Counted from the stretch's first letter, positions 25,506 to 31,832 are shown. The stretch: DNA of 64,000 bases from Gammaproteobacteria bacterium (GCA_050298595.1 JBNKUM010000101.1:96001-160000); one strand, 5' to 3'. The notes: generated by a model not told the origin, from the sequence alone. Numbers and translations are program-made.

Positions 25506-26443
25506 GGGGTCAGGCCTTACATTTGACACCAGGTTTTCGATTTGGTAATTTTCTGAATTTTCCAGGTCAGGGGGCAAGAAAATGGCCAGACCTCTACGAA
25601 TTGAGTTTGCGGGGGCCTTATACCACATCACATCTCACGGCAATGCACAGGGCGAGATTTTCCTGAATAATGCTGATCGGATAAAGTTTCTTGATATATT
25701 AAGTCAAGCTGTTATTCGATATGACTGGTACTGTCATGCCTATTGCCTGATGGATAATCATTATCACCTTCTGATTGAAACCGGCACACCAACACTGTCC
25801 AAAGGAATGAAATATCTCAATGGCTCCTACACGCAGTCTTTTAACCGGCTGCATCAACTCTTTGGGCATGTTTTTCAGGGTCGTTATAAAGCCATACTTG
25901 TTGACAAAGAAAGCTATCTACTGGAATTGTCGCGCTACATCGTCCTTAATCCAGTCAGGGCTCTGATGGTGCGCAGTGCAAAAGAATGGCGCTGGAGTAG
26001 TTATCGAGCAACAGCAGGCCAGACTGAAGCTCATCCCTGTTTAACGATTGACTTGGTATTGTCCCTTTTGGGGAAAAGACGCAGAAAAGCACAGGAGAAC
26101 TATAGGGCTTTTGTTGTAGAAGGCCGCAATCAACCCTCTCCCTGGGAAAGACTTAAGAATCAAATCTATTTAGGTAGTGATCAATTTGTAGAAGATGTGC
26201 AGAGTAAGTTGGATCCAGATCAATCACTCAAGGATATTCCCAGAAAACAGAAACGGGCGGCACAGCGACCACTTAGCGATTACGCCAAGAAGGGTGTTGA
26301 GAGAAATTCAGCGATGGCACAAGCCTACCTTAGCGGGTACTACACATTGGAGCAGGTAGGTGAGTATTTTGGGTGCAGCTATGCAACGGTAAGTCGCGCT
26401 GTAAAAGCTTTTGAGACTCAAATGTGAAATGTAAGGATGACCC
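25506..26443 (+). mobile_element. RAYT-type element bounded by imperfect ~23-bp inverted ends
   Basis: Left ggggtcaggccttacatttgaca; right tgtgaaatgtaaggatgaccc overlapping the transposase stop. Confidence 0.75.
25582..26427 (+). CDS. REP-associated (Y1/IS200-like) HUH tyrosine transposase with C-terminal HTH
   Basis: MARPLRIEF start, CLMDNHYHLL (HUH), FQGRY, YIVLNPVRA (catalytic Tyr), WSSY, C-terminal TLEQVGEYFGCSYATVSR HTH. Confidence 0.92.
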   Translation: MARPLRIEFAGALYHITSHGNAQGEIFLNNADRIKFLDILSQAVIRYDWYCHAYCLMDNHYHLLIETGTPTLSKGMKYLNGSYTQSFNRLHQLFGHVFQGRYKAILVDKESYLLELSRYIVLNPVRALMVRSAKEWRWSSYRATAGQTEAHPCLTIDLVLSLLGKRRRKAQENYRAFVVEGRNQPSPWERLKNQIYLGSDQFVEDVQSKLDPDQSLKDIPRKQKRAAQRPLSDYAKKGVERNSAMAQAYLSGYYTLEQVGEYFGCSYATVSRAVKAFETQM

Positions 26444-26871
26444 TGAAGCTCGCAAAAGCCTGTTCTTAGAGTCCATTTGCTCAGCCAGAAAATCAAGGAA
26501 GGGGGCCGCCGGGAAGATGCTGTTCGTTCTTGACCGAATCCTACGGTGACTGATAGGTTTTAGGATAAGGAGCCGATATATCGTCTCAGAACTAAGTTAG
26601 CCACTAATTCTAGAGATTTCCCGACTAAGAAAGTAATTATTTCATGAATTTCACGTTTTTTTCACGAAATGGAATTAGAATAATTTCAGGGATGAGAAAG
26701 AGCCGATCTCTTCGGTTCTTAATAAAAAACCACATTTGTTGAGTATTATGGATAGATGTGCGGCATTATACCTACAAGCATATAATTGTCTTCCCACATC
26801 CCTTATAACTACTTAACAAATATCCAGGATGAATTGACAACAGTTTAGTTACAACCGAAAGGGTGTATTTT

Positions 26872-27150
26872 ATGAGTAGTATTGTATTAGCAGTTATATC
26901 CTTAAGCCTTGCCTTTGTTTTAATGGTCATGTGGATCCGGGCTCGGAGAGCTGCGCTTCGAGCTGAAGTTGTGGCATACGGGTTGCGTGCTCAGGATGAC
27001 AGAGATGAAGATACCAAAACTAATCTGATCAACAGGCATAAAGAATATAATGTGGCTATCAGTAAGCTGGATCAGATGGGACAGATTAAGCGTGATAAGT
27101 GGGGCCATTGGGTCTGGACAGAATCGGGGCAGCAATTGGGCCAGGGATGA
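26872..27150 (+). CDS. 92-aa single-pass membrane protein, paralogue A
   Basis: N-terminal TM; 53/92 identical without gaps to 30596-30874. Confidence 0.85.
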   Translation: MSSIVLAVISLSLAFVLMVMWIRARRAALRAEVVAYGLRAQDDRDEDTKTNLINRHKEYNVAISKLDQMGQIKRDKWGHWVWTESGQQLGQG

Positions 27151-27314
27151 TGTTTGATTTGGCTATCAAAATGATAGCCCGTTAAACCCACAATAATCAT
27201 TTAAAATATCCAGTCAATTTTGATCTTAAGTACCCGGAGTTTGATTATCTATCAGACGGCCTTTCAGTAATTAAGTAAGAACTCACTCTATAGAAACAAC
27301 TGGGGAATTAATAA

Positions 27315-28025
27315 ATGATTATAGCCAGACAACCAATTGATCTTCACTGCCCTGAAACCGATATCTATCATCGATTGTTATCACTGGATGGCAAACACAT
27401 AGTGGAGCTGGGTTGTGGCAGCGCCGATATTACTCGAGACATTGCTTCTTCAGGTAGTGGTCGAAAAGTATGGGCGTTTGAAGTCGATGAGATAGCTCAT
27501 CACAAAAACTTACAAATCACTGACCTGCCGAATGTGACTTTTGGTCTTGCTGGTGCGCAGGAGATTCCATTGGCTGATGCATCGATGGATGTCGTTTTTA
27601 TGTTTAAATCGATGCACCATGTTCCTTTAGACCTGATGGATCAATCGCTGCTGGAAATACGACGAGTGTTAAAGCCTGGTGGGCTGGCTTATATCTCTGA
27701 ACCTGTCTTTGACGGTGAGTTTAATGAAGTTCTACGTTTATTTCACGATGAGCAAAAAGTCCGTCAAGCGGCTTTTAGTACATTGGAAAGAGCAGTTCAG
27801 GACAATCAGTTTATTCTGCTCGAAGAAGTTTTTTTTACAACCTCGATGAAATTCGCCAATTTTTCTGAGTTTGAAAATAAAGTCATCAAGGCAACTCATT
27901 CAGATCACAAATTAAGCAATGTACTGCACAAGCAAGTTAAACAAGCCTTTGAAAAACATCTTGGTGATGAGGGTGTTCACTTTAAACAGCCTATTCGTGT
28001 GGATCTATTACAGCGGCCGATTTGA
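27315..28025 (+). CDS. Class I SAM-dependent methyltransferase
   Basis: IVELGCGSA, IPLADASMDVV, RVLKPGG motifs. Confidence 0.9.
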   Translation: MIIARQPIDLHCPETDIYHRLLSLDGKHIVELGCGSADITRDIASSGSGRKVWAFEVDEIAHHKNLQITDLPNVTFGLAGAQEIPLADASMDVVFMFKSMHHVPLDLMDQSLLEIRRVLKPGGLAYISEPVFDGEFNEVLRLFHDEQKVRQAAFSTLERAVQDNQFILLEEVFFTTSMKFANFSEFENKVIKATHSDHKLSNVLHKQVKQAFEKHLGDEGVHFKQPIRVDLLQRPI

Positions 28026-28089
28026 CCCTGTATTGAAGCAAGCGAGACTAGTGTATGGGGCAGCAGGAATATGACCGTTTTTTATGAGT

Positions 28090-28117
28090 TTGAAAATTCA
28101 AAACAGCATGCTATATT
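28090..28117 (+). promoter_or_regulatory. Putative sigma70 promoter of the dapA leader
   Basis: TTGAAA-16-TATATT with extended -10 TG. Confidence 0.5.
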
Positions 28118-28155
28118 AAGGTCTCGAATTGAAACTTAACAAGATTACTAAATAA

Positions 28156-28239
28156 ATGTTTACACTTCCCAGCCTGTCTAAACAAAAACGCTGCAAAAAG
28201 GTGATATCCTTTGCGGCTATGGTTGCTGTGTGTAATTAA
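28156..28239 (+). CDS. Putative 27-aa Lys-rich leader peptide MFTLPSLSKQKRCKKVISFAAMVAVCN
   Basis: Four Lys codons within 7 codons, overlapping alternative RNA hairpins upstream of the dapA terminator; RBS weak. Confidence 0.6.
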   Translation: MFTLPSLSKQKRCKKVISFAAMVAVCN

Positions 28240-28256
28240 AAAAAACGATTTAATAC

Positions 28257-28294
28257 AAAAAGCCCGGTCGCAGAAATGCTACCGGGCTTTTTTT
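28257..28294 (+). terminator. Intrinsic terminator (attenuator) in the dapA leader
   Basis: agcccggt-c-gca-GAAA-tgc-t-accgggct plus T-run, 27 nt before the dapA ATG. Confidence 0.85.
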
Positions 28295-28321
28295 ATGCCT
28301 ATAGAAAATTCGGAGAAAACT

Positions 28322-29194
28322 ATGTTTTACGGTTCATACGTCGCTTTGGTCACCCCTTTTAGAGCTGGCACCGTCGATGAGAAAGCCCTGCGCTATCTGG
28401 TTAACTGGCAGATTGAGCAGGGTACTAATGGTCTAGTACCTGTTGGTACTACGGGGGAGTCTCCTACGGTTACAGAAATGGAACATAAGCGAATCATCGA
28501 GGTGGTCGTAGAGGAGGCTGCTGGCAGAGTACCTGTCATAGCTGGCGCGGGTTCTAATAATCCAGTGGAAGCGTTGACTTATGCAAAAACGGCTGAAACA
28601 TTGGGCACAGATGGAATTCTCTGTGTGGCGGGTTATTATAATCGTCCTTCGCAAGCTGGGTTGTACGAGCATTTTAAATATCTCCATGATCAGACAGATA
28701 TACCCATTATCATTTACAACATTCCCCCTCGTACCATCGTTGATGTCGAACCAAATACGATGGCTAAACTGGCTGCTTTGCCACGTATAGTTGGTGTCAA
28801 AGACGCCACGATGGATTTATCACGCATCAGCCGCGAGCGATTATTGATTAGCAAGGAGTTCAGTTATCTATCTGGTGAAGATATGACTGCGCTCGCGTAT
28901 AACTCGATGGGAGGCAGTGGTTGTATCTCGGTAACGGCAAATATTGCGCCCGGGCTTTGTGCTGACTTGCATACTGCCTGTCAGAGTGGAGATTATCAGC
29001 GGGCATTAGAGTTACACGAAAAGTTGATGCCATTGCATCAGGCATTATTCGAAGAACCAAGTCCATCGGGTATCAAATATGCGCTATCACTTAGCGGACA
29101 GTGTAGTGATGAAGTACGTTTACCTATACTGCCTTTAGGTCAGCATGCCAGAGATAATATTAAGTCAGCGCTTGAAAATTTATCGCTCATATAA
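28322..29194 (+). CDS. dapA: 4-hydroxy-tetrahydrodipicolinate synthase
   Basis: GTTGES, YYNRP, IYNIP, GVKDA; start ATG 28322 after ggaga. Confidence 0.9.
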   Translation: MFYGSYVALVTPFRAGTVDEKALRYLVNWQIEQGTNGLVPVGTTGESPTVTEMEHKRIIEVVVEEAAGRVPVIAGAGSNNPVEALTYAKTAETLGTDGILCVAGYYNRPSQAGLYEHFKYLHDQTDIPIIIYNIPPRTIVDVEPNTMAKLAALPRIVGVKDATMDLSRISRERLLISKEFSYLSGEDMTALAYNSMGGSGCISVTANIAPGLCADLHTACQSGDYQRALELHEKLMPLHQALFEEPSPSGIKYALSLSGQCSDEVRLPILPLGQHARDNIKSALENLSLI

Positions 29195-29364
29195 CGAAGT
29201 GAATTGCAGTAAGAGTTTGTGAATTCTGGGTTTGACCACCTGCGTTACTTTTCAAAATCTTACTAACATACCCTGTGGAATCTGACCTGTGGATATCTCA
29301 AAACTTGAAGTATTCGCTGAAGAGTTGATTAGTTGCTTTTAGCCTCAGCATTCGATATGCCAGG

Positions 29365-29544
29365 GGCAGCTTTGATCTGTATGTGCTTCAGATCCCGCCT
29401 TACTGGGCTTACAGGCTGCTCCGCACTTTGAGTTATATTTCTTGCCAGGCAGGAGTATGTCTAAAAAGTTGCGCATTGATTGCACATCAGCCTGTAAGGC
29501 CATAGATACAACATGATCATAGGATAACTGAACAGAGGCACCCT
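29365..29544. repeat. Degenerate copy of the MITE at 32953-33141
   Basis: ttcttgccaggcag...aagttg.gc.ttgattg...tcag.ctgt.ag...agatacaacat aligns to 33049-33122; ends cagaggcaccct. Confidence 0.7.
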
Positions 29545-29633: not shown

Positions 29634-30194
29634 TTAATTTTGAGTAGGCCTGTACTGCTCAACATAACCACTGCCAATTGCTGAAAAAGGAAGCTCAAGT
29701 TCTAACTCTGGAACTCTTTTGCCTATCCAGGCTACGAACGTATTACTATTAGGCCCGGGGAATGCATGGTATTCATCTTTCCATGGGTAATCCTGTACCG
29801 CCTGTTCAATTTCATCAATCATTTCATCAACGCCGCTACCATGATGTTCTTTGAGTAAGACAGGTTTCGCTCCATACCAGTACCGGTCTGGTATGTCTAT
29901 TTGTGCTGCAACTACTGGTTGGCCACGATGATTTCTCCAGCCAACAACGTCGTAGACGGTGTATTCTGATTCGCCACTTCGTTTGGCTGCCACCCAGGTG
30001 TGTATGGCAAACCAGCCTCGCCATCCCCAGGCATCTGCACCGTAAATATGTATTACCGCTTCGTTATTAGTCGTCGGATCAGGTGCAATACCTGCTGATT
30101 CTCTGCTGGCAGTGCGCCAATCATTACTCGTTGAGCAACTGGAAATGGTAATTGTCATGACTACAAATAGAAAGTATAAGATAGACTCTTTCAT
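29634..30194 (-). CDS. DUF3750-like lipoprotein
   Basis: Lipobox ISSC; WRTASRESAGIAPDP, FAIHTW, PGPNSNTF motifs. Confidence 0.8.
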   Translation of the reverse strand: MKESILYFLFVVMTITISSCSTSNDWRTASRESAGIAPDPTTNNEAVIHIYGADAWGWRGWFAIHTWVAAKRSGESEYTVYDVVGWRNHRGQPVVAAQIDIPDRYWYGAKPVLLKEHHGSGVDEMIDEIEQAVQDYPWKDEYHAFPGPNSNTFVAWIGKRVPELELELPFSAIGSGYVEQYRPTQN

Positions 30195-30595: not shown

Positions 30596-30874
30596 ATGGG
30601 TGGGTTTATTGTGGCGATTATTTCTTCTGCCTTTGCAATTGTCTTTTTGGTAATGTGGCTTCGTGCTCGGAAAGCAGTTAGTGAAGCCGAAGTTGTTGCC
30701 TATGGCTTACGATCCCAGGACGATAGTGATGAAAACACTAAAACTAGCCTTTCAATAATGGAAGCAGAATATGATGCTGCGATTGACAAGCTCAGCGAGA
30801 TGGGTGAAATCAAGCGCGATGAATGGGGGCGCTGGGTGTGGACAAAAACTGGACAACCCTTAGGTGAAGACTAA
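30596..30874 (+). CDS. 92-aa single-pass membrane protein, paralogue B
   Basis: Colinear with 26872-27150. Confidence 0.85.
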   Translation: MGGFIVAIISSAFAIVFLVMWLRARKAVSEAEVVAYGLRSQDDSDENTKTSLSIMEAEYDAAIDKLSEMGEIKRDEWGRWVWTKTGQPLGED

Positions 30875-30897: not shown

Positions 30898-31832
30898 GAG
30901 CCTTTTGCAAAACTTCAGAAACCAGTGAATATATTAGCCAGAAAAAGCTAAAAGGAGAAGTGCCTGATCCCATTTGTTAAAATGGGGTTCACCACAAACA
31001 GATAAAAAAACCCAATGAGAAATCAGGCTCCAATCTCTCAGACACCTTTATCATTATCCAGTATCTGGCATCATCTTCAAGGACATCTTTTCCCCTGGAT
31101 ACAGGAAGAACTCCCGGCGCTGACCAGAAAGCAACAGAATTATCGAAATCCTGGAAATAACGCAACTGAAAACGCATTTGCCCTATTCAGGTCAGGTTCC
31201 TGGTCGACCACAAAAATGTCGTGAATCCATAGCTCGCGCCTTTGTTGCCAAAGCGGTTTATAACCTGAACACCACTGAAATGTTGATAGACAGTTTTAAC
31301 TCTAATATTTCACTCCGTCGAATCTGCGGATGGGAGAAAAGAAGTGAGATACCCACTAGTTCCACCTTTTCACGGGCTTTTGCAGAGTTTGCCTGGTCCA
31401 GGCTGGCTGAGCGAGTTCATCAAGCCATCATTGAGCAGCATCTTGGGAATTATTTGATTTACCATATTTCACGGGATTCAACCGCCATCACCGCACGGGA
31501 GAAGCCAGAGATACAACAGAGGTGCCTTAATGGATGTCGCCTATGATTAACCCTTGATCAAAAAGCACAGTGAAGCATTAGGACATGTTCCATTGATAGA
31601 TGAAAACCCTCGAACAACAGATCGCAAAGAAGAAATAAAAGATGGGCTACAAAGCAAACGATATGCCAGTTATAAAACAGCGCAAGACATTCGTTATAAT
31701 GAGCGCAGCACTATTGAACGAGTGAATGGTCGGCTCAAAGATGAGTTTGGCGCACGAATGGTGCGAGTCAGAGGTCATGTCCCACCTGATGTTTGGTGTT
31801 ATCGCCCAACGGTTGATCAATGGCTTATATAA
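30898..31832 (+). pseudogene. Fragmented DDE transposase (IS5/IS1182-like) with left end
   Basis: gagccttttgcaaaact end; three ORF pieces with GRP..ARAFVAK, LRRICGW, SRDSTAI, YNERSTIERVNGRLK. Confidence 0.8.

Follow-up and report, generated by a model that had tools for sequence, protein, structure and literature searches.

The window analysed here is a 64,000-nucleotide stretch of gammaproteobacterial DNA (GCA_050298595.1, JBNKUM010000101.1:96001-160000), and all positions are counted from its first letter. A methyltransferase-like gene (27315-28025, Pfam Methyltransf_25/11) is separated by a non-coding gap of 296 nt from a DHDPS-family gene. The latter, here called dapA2 (28322-29194, + strand), is a second gene for 4-hydroxy-tetrahydrodipicolinate synthase; it encodes 290 aa and is preceded by GGAG at 28312-28315. 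A DUF3750 lipoprotein-like gene (29634-30194, - strand) lies downstream and is convergent to dapA2, which therefore appears to be monocistronic. The block of methyltransferase gene, leader, dapA2 and DUF3750 gene is flanked by two paralogous small frames, 26863-27150 (95 aa) and 30596-30874 (92 aa), both with a hydrophobic N-terminus and no Pfam match. Just outside these frames are an IS200-like Y1 transposase frame (25582-26427) and a DUF772 transposase fragment (31178-31546). The region around dapA2 looks like a variable or mobile stretch.

The DapA2 protein scores 315.6 bits against the NCBIfam equivalog TIGR00674 (cut-off 206.15) and also matches Pfam DHDPS. The host genome contains two DHDPS genes. 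The window gene and its housekeeping counterpart on contig C72 share 40% identity, and the product of the latter scores 361.6 bits against the same TIGR00674 cut-off of 206.15. The neighbours of dapA on contig C72 are a bamC-like lipoprotein gene and a peroxiredoxin-like gene in divergent orientation, the usual surroundings of dapA in Gammaproteobacteria. The top solved relative of DapA2 is a dihydrodipicolinate synthase (PDB entry 2rfg, E 2.4e-129), and each of the 60 PDB matches listed carries the name dihydrodipicolinate or 4-hydroxy-tetrahydrodipicolinate synthase. The stretches GTTGE, YY, YN..R and VGVKD are invariant in the alignment of DapA2 with housekeeping DapA, and they presumably hold the catalytic residues. 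Judged by family membership, the window gene is a second dapA, a DHDPS. The original prediction had named dapA as the controlled gene; the enzyme family stands, but the gene is a second, patchily distributed paralogue and not the housekeeping dapA. Extra DapA2 would be expected to raise flux into lysine.

Within the genus, dapA2 is present in 6 of 14 genomes at 72-100% identity. The nearest relatives of the protein are in a Candidatus Thiodiazotropha MAG (87%) and in Amphritea (77-79%), followed by Aliivibrio and a Vibrionaceae MAG (70-71%), Thiothrix (68-69%) and MAGs of Cellvibrionaceae (69%) and Moraxellaceae (64%). Beyond these there is a long tail of relatives at 51-58% identity, mostly alphaproteobacterial records. 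A class-wide sample shows dapA2 in 5 of 399 other scored genomes (E up to 1e-115). This patchy spread, and the closer likeness of DapA2 to the mostly alphaproteobacterial tail than to the host dapA, suggest that dapA2 was acquired by horizontal transfer.

All elements of the leader upstream of dapA2 lie on the + strand. The promoter-like site (28090-28117) includes a -35 box TTGAAA (28090-28095), a 16-nt spacer, a TG (28109-28110) and a -10 box TATATT (28112-28117). It matches the consensus at 10 of 12 positions, in line with the promoter-like box proposed originally, and is the top of four sites in 27300-29400; the shuffle mean for this interval is 4.3, so that there is no excess and the site taken alone is weak evidence. 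It is kept in an alignment of five genus sequences, and -10-like boxes were read by eye at a similar distance upstream in the Amphritea, Vibrionaceae and Thiothrix loci. Transcription would start at about 28124. The leader reading frame (28156-28239) has 27 codons, an ATG start and a TAA stop at 28237-28239. Its Lys codon cluster (28180-28200) includes codons 9 (28180-28182), 11 (28186-28188), 14 (28195-28197) and 15 (28198-28200). Four Lys codons in 27 make a modest cluster by the standard of his or phe leaders. The leader frame lacks a clear Shine-Dalgarno sequence in the window and in many relatives.

Two alternative sets of helices can be built from this RNA. Region 1 (28190-28201) contains Lys codons 14 and 15 and is the 5' arm of hairpin 1:2. 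Region 2 (28208-28218) has two partners: region 1, through 28208-28217, or the terminator 5' arm, through pairing of 28210-28218 with 28266-28274. The intrinsic terminator, formed by regions 3 and 4 (28262-28294), has a 5' arm at 28262-28272, a GAAA loop at 28273-28276 and a 3' arm at 28277-28287. Its T-run (28288-28294) ends 27 nt upstream of the dapA2 ATG at 28322, and its folding energy is -18 to -21 kcal/mol. A simple terminator scan missed the stem 28262-28287 because of one stem mismatch. Three inner antiterminator helices (28221-28264) pair 28221-28224 with 28261-28264, 28227-28231 with 28253-28257 and 28234-28237 with 28247-28250. A tentative outer helix P0 (28160-28235), in which 28160-28165 pairs with 28230-28235, would enclose hairpin 1:2 if the leader is ribosome-free; with 65-68% of cells paired across relatives it is weakly supported. 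The entire window leader folds at -52 kcal/mol (z = -4.2), and none of 200 shuffles equals this value.

Most of the anatomy drawn in the original prediction is recovered by this analysis, including the 27-codon frame with its Lys codons and the GAAA-capped terminator with its U-run 27 nt before the gene. Hairpin 1:2 (28190-28217), proposed originally as covering the Lys codons, is present in the minimum-energy fold; its 5' arm contains codons 14 and 15, the last of the Lys cluster. Of the two proposed 2:3 pairings, the first, tgcggct with ggtcgca, also forms in the folds and is retained throughout the relatives. The second was placed in a register that the folds do not give; they form 28221-28224/28261-28264 and 28227-28231/28253-28257 instead.

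Such an arrangement suggests the following mechanism. Transcription would start at about 28124, and a ribosome would translate the 27-codon leader. When charged lysyl-tRNA is plentiful, the ribosome would pass the Lys codons, reach the stop codon and cover the inner antiterminator segment. Behind the finishing ribosome region 1 would pair again with region 2, hairpin 3:4 would form and transcription would stop 27 nt before dapA2. When lysyl-tRNA is scarce, the ribosome would stall with a Lys codon in its A site, covering region 1 and leaving region 2 free. Free region 2 would then pair with the terminator 5' arm before the 3' arm is made, no terminator would form and dapA2 would be transcribed. 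With zero translation, 1:2 and 3:4 would both form and transcription would terminate. Translation of the leader, stalling of the ribosome and the response to lysine are inferred here from the anatomy and from the comparison of related leaders.

The frame carries a coding signature. We compared 28 distinct leaders in an alignment (A5) made to a covariance model, R1, which was built from 17 leaders. All 28 have a frame of 20-34 codons, 2-5 of them for Lys, that stops between region 2 and the terminator (start codon ATG in 25, GTG in 3). In 23 of these it is the sole frame of at least 15 codons ending at that place, and the second candidate frames in the remaining five are not common to different lineages. 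Upstream of region 2, AAA and AAG triplets number 89 in frame and 29 and 47 in the other two frames. Within lineages there are synonymous third-position changes, including AAA/AAG swaps at Lys, and the two length differences among the Thiothrix-group frames are both 3 nt. Between lineages, the peptides share little beyond the Lys codons and, in several, Lys-Pro pairs. The Lys codons are not always adjacent, and three leaders (L205, L210, L214) have just two.

The spacing of the Lys codons is also conserved. The last Lys codon of the cluster ends 12-15 nt upstream of the GCGG core of region 2 in 26 of 28 leaders, and 6 and 9 nt upstream of it in the other two. The commonly cited ribosome footprint is our basis for what a stalled ribosome covers, and with this footprint the 12-15 nt spacing implies that a ribosome stalled there would cover region 1 and leave region 2 accessible. 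From the region 2 core it is 6-24 nt downstream to the stop codon, and a finishing ribosome would therefore cover region 2 or the inner antiterminator.

These leaders could in principle be translation-coupled attenuators that respond to a signal other than lysine, such as general translation speed, nearby Arg or Pro codons or slow Lys-Pro peptide-bond formation. With just 2-5 Lys codons per leader, Lys-Pro pairs recurring in several lineages and Arg codons directly after Lys codons in the Thiothrix group, such a signal is conceivable, but we consider it quite unlikely: Lys is the sole residue type kept in all 28 leaders and in three more distant ones, the distance from Lys to region 2 is fixed, and the controlled gene encodes the first committed step to lysine. 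Lys-Pro pairs stand beside the Lys cluster in the leaders of L036, L037, L038, L205, L210-L215, L221 and L222, several of which are unrelated. They may prolong the ribosome dwell time at the sensor.

The competing pairings are found by computation in every lineage, together with the conserved anatomy in which they lie. Folded alone, each leader forms hairpin 1:2 and the terminator. To represent the stalled state, the ribosome was placed on the last Lys codon with 12 nt downstream masked and the terminator 3' arm not yet made. In the window leader so modelled, region 2 (28210-28218) pairs with 28266-28274; this antiterminator is extended by 28221-28224/28261-28264 and the inner hairpin, and occupies 10 of the 11 terminator-arm bases. 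Across the set, at least four of the five region 2 core bases pair with the terminator 5' arm in 28 of 28 modelled stalls, at -15 to -23 kcal/mol.

The same helices are kept across the A5 alignment, which follows the terminated structure rather than 2:3. The 2:3 helix of nine pairs is 84.1% paired on A5, against 30-55% when slid, and four of its pairs are changed on both sides. Its five core pairs are standard in each of the 28 leaders; because the GCGG/CCGC cores are invariant, covariation of 2:3 rests on the flanking pairs. The whole antiterminator, in 17 sequences, is 82.9% paired (36-51% slid), and the terminated fold 78.4% (35-44% slid). On the alignment 91% of terminator cells are paired and five pairs are changed on both sides, and the terminators fold at -17.7 to -27.2 kcal/mol in 28 of 28. 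Hairpin 1:2 is full in 19 and partial in 9 of 28 leaders by folding, and 66-73% paired on alignments. One terminator-arm column alternates between U and C yet pairs in both states; with its terminator partner it forms UA in 16 sequences, CG in 9 and UG in 2, and with region 2 GU in 17, GC in 10 and AU in 1.

In 15 of 17 sequences, no more than 8% of dinucleotide shuffles reach the energy gain of the real 2:3 pairing; these counts are not probabilities, because the sequences are related. The failure of the other two, L036 and L004, is explained by a further Lys codon downstream, which shifted the assumed stall site onto region 2. The energy gain alone separates real from shuffled sequences, and the count of paired terminator-arm bases does not. 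RNAalifold on a MAFFT alignment recovered the terminator, a short helix and nothing else. Because lineages differ in the register of hairpin 1:2, per-sequence folding and named structures were used.

Conserved alternative pairings by themselves need no ribosome, and the Shine-Dalgarno sequence is weak or absent; both would suit a switch that works without translation, a metabolite-binding riboswitch or a site for an RNA-binding protein, with the reading frame incidental. We give such a switch little credence. Beyond short cores there is no sequence conservation between lineages, unlike in an aptamer, there is no Rfam match, and what the leaders do keep is the frame with its start, its indels of 3 nt and its in-frame Lys codons.

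The leader accompanies dapA2 from genome to genome. Five of the 13 other genomes of the genus contain leader DNA, and they are those having dapA2; none of 27 more distant relatives does. Altogether 28 distinct sequences show this layout upstream of a dapA2 orthologue; they come from several gammaproteobacterial groups, among them Amphritea, Aliivibrio, Thiothrix, Cellvibrionaceae MAGs and Moraxellaceae MAGs. Among the carriers are the cultured Amphritea atlantica, Amphritea pacifica, Aliivibrio kagoshimensis and Thiothrix eikelboomii. The gene neighbourhoods of the leader differ among loci. A tRNA integration site upstream of the Thiothrix locus L049 was considered and rejected; the tRNA-like string there is not called by ARAGORN.

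A set of 80 genome-contig loci was compared, four of which were skipped, the match start not being at the expected position. At 64-91% identity, 14 of 15 loci have a hairpin and T-run 17-35 nt upstream of the ATG (the exception is L033). At 51-58% identity, in mostly alphaproteobacterial loci, a terminator upstream of the gene is found at 0 of 61. The leader is absent at L033, at the class-sample gene L224 and at the metagenome loci L107-L109 (63-65% identity). A metagenome scan with the DapA2 alignment gave best 80 loci that are nearly all at 52-60% identity, with a terminator at 0 of the 17 tested.

In the host genome the R1 model finds exactly one copy (154.6 bits); the runners-up score no more than 31 bits and are other terminators. 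Strong R1 matches occur in 2 of 151 sampled Vibrionaceae genomes; within the Thiothrix family R1 matches 8 of 107 genomes, and within the Amphritea family 9 of 151. All 13 further matches from two families (11 new loci and 2 repeats of known loci) directly precede a DapA2 orthologue of 61-71% identity. In the class sample of 399 other scored genomes, four of the five dapA2-type genes have a Lys frame and terminator, one of them matching R1 strongly and the other three identified by inspection (two score weakly with R1). In an Aliivibrio genome R1 hits a second site at 37 bits, which was rejected as a leader: it is the terminator behind a gene with several Lys codons at its end. Two weak matches in Vibrionaceae (42 bits) were likewise set aside as a thr-type leader before a thrA-like gene. 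At the Vibrionaceae locus L198 (1500-1740), a short Thr/Ile-rich frame and a terminator lie upstream of a thrA-like gene. That R1 matches a thr-type leader shows the general likeness of the dapA2 leader to classical attenuators.

In the 16 leaders measured to the start codon, the T-run ends 17-27 nt upstream of dapA2. The 17th, from the genus member G004, has a tandem-repeat insert, and the more distant class-sample leaders also lie further from the start. In G004 (L006, 1573-1723) three copies of a 51-nt tandem repeat, 151 nt in all, lie between the terminator and dapA2, which starts about 200 nt past the T-run. It is scarcely credible that promoter, small frame and terminator are a small gene of their own, for a small RNA or a 27-residue peptide, with dapA2 under its own promoter: the unit does have its own promoter-like site and terminator, and the 151-nt repeat parts the terminator from dapA2 in G004, but the 17-27 nt between T-run and gene in the 16 measured leaders are too few for a promoter, the element was found nowhere but upstream of dapA2, in single copy in its own genome and in varied neighbourhoods, and the peptide sequence is not conserved between lineages.

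Taken together, the element is most likely a ribosome-mediated leader-peptide transcription attenuator tuned to lysine and controlling the second dapA. The ribosome-stalling attenuator first proposed fits the comparative evidence, with the frame in 28 of 28 leaders, the Lys spacing in 26 of 28 and competing pairings in every lineage. Recurrence before an orthologous gene in 28 distinct sequences confirms, at the level of sequence comparison, that the whole arrangement exceeds chance. Promoter, lysine-sensing leader peptide and dapA2 together probably make up a mobile cassette that provides a lysine-starvation-inducible pathway entry enzyme under an apparently undescribed lysine attenuator in Gammaproteobacteria, although we hold this broader view with somewhat less confidence. 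The comparative signature is unusually clear, and a regulatory leader is seen travelling with its gene between distant hosts. The family can be tested directly, because it is present in cultured strains. If correct, the proposed lysine attenuation would explain the retention of a second dapA in some bacteria, and the leader would offer a compact lysine-responsive part for reporters.

Lysine synthesis genes are, in textbooks, controlled by the lysine riboswitch, ArgP or LysR. Leader-peptide attenuation was discovered in the genus Escherichia, itself a gammaproteobacterium, and textbooks give it as the mechanism for Trp, His, Phe, Leu, Thr and Ile/Val. A comparative survey of proteobacterial attenuators by Vitreschak and colleagues in 2004 reportedly does not list lysine. 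The original prediction knew of no described Lys attenuator, and we likewise found no description of a lysine leader-peptide attenuator in Rfam 15 or in a full-text literature search. An attenuator of this kind is apparently undescribed so far, and the family would fill a gap by adding lysine as a leader-peptide attenuation signal.

A search of 27000-29500 with Rfam 15 (E up to 10) listed 15 matches and no family at cut-off. The top sub-threshold match, at 27 bits, is driven by the terminator. Thr_leader reaches 22 bits in this interval against a cut-off of 55, and Trp_leader 19.8 against 41; His_leader, Leu_leader and the lysine riboswitch RF00168 are not among the 15 matches listed. In the whole host genome, the Rfam Thr, His and Leu leader models give nothing above cut-off, which says little because these models are built on enterobacteria. 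RF00168 gives 0 matches in the whole host genome (98.6% complete) at E up to 0.01, while four control genomes are positive.

Several published cases touch on parts of this arrangement. In Sinorhizobium, a frame with Thr and Lys codons is proposed upstream of an aspartate dehydrogenase gene, according to an excerpt of PMC10117765. For Shewanella lysC, the lysine riboswitch is the sole control listed in the relevant part of PMC2659441. Vibrio natriegens, as described in excerpts of PMC12925634, has a dapA1 adjoining bamC and an extra dapA2 elsewhere. Its Vn.DapA2 is weakly active and lysine-insensitive, retaining 83% activity with lysine, compared with 5% for Vn.DapA1 at 5 mM lysine (same excerpts). 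By this description Vn.dapA2 resembles the window dapA2 as an extra dapA in a gammaproteobacterium, and the excerpts of PMC12925634 mention no leader peptide for it.

The lysine riboswitch (L box, LYS element, RF00168) resembles the dapA2 leader as a cis-acting RNA on lysine genes that often works through a terminator. The dapA2 leader differs from it in being a leader of about 170 nt with a translated-looking frame in place of the aptamer, and in having no aptamer match. Closer likeness is found in the enterobacterial leaders trpL, hisL, thrL, leuL, pheL and ilvL, which have, as the dapA2 leader does, a promoter-proximal frame with codons for the end product. Leaders of the trpL/hisL/thrL type also share the mutually exclusive 1:2, 2:3 and 3:4 pairings and a terminator just before the biosynthetic gene. 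The dapA2 leader differs from these classical attenuators in its Lys regulatory codons, in its single target gene, a second dapA, and in moving with that gene between distant gammaproteobacteria. Its assignment as the lysine member of the classical leader-peptide attenuators, attached to a mobile second dapA, is well supported.
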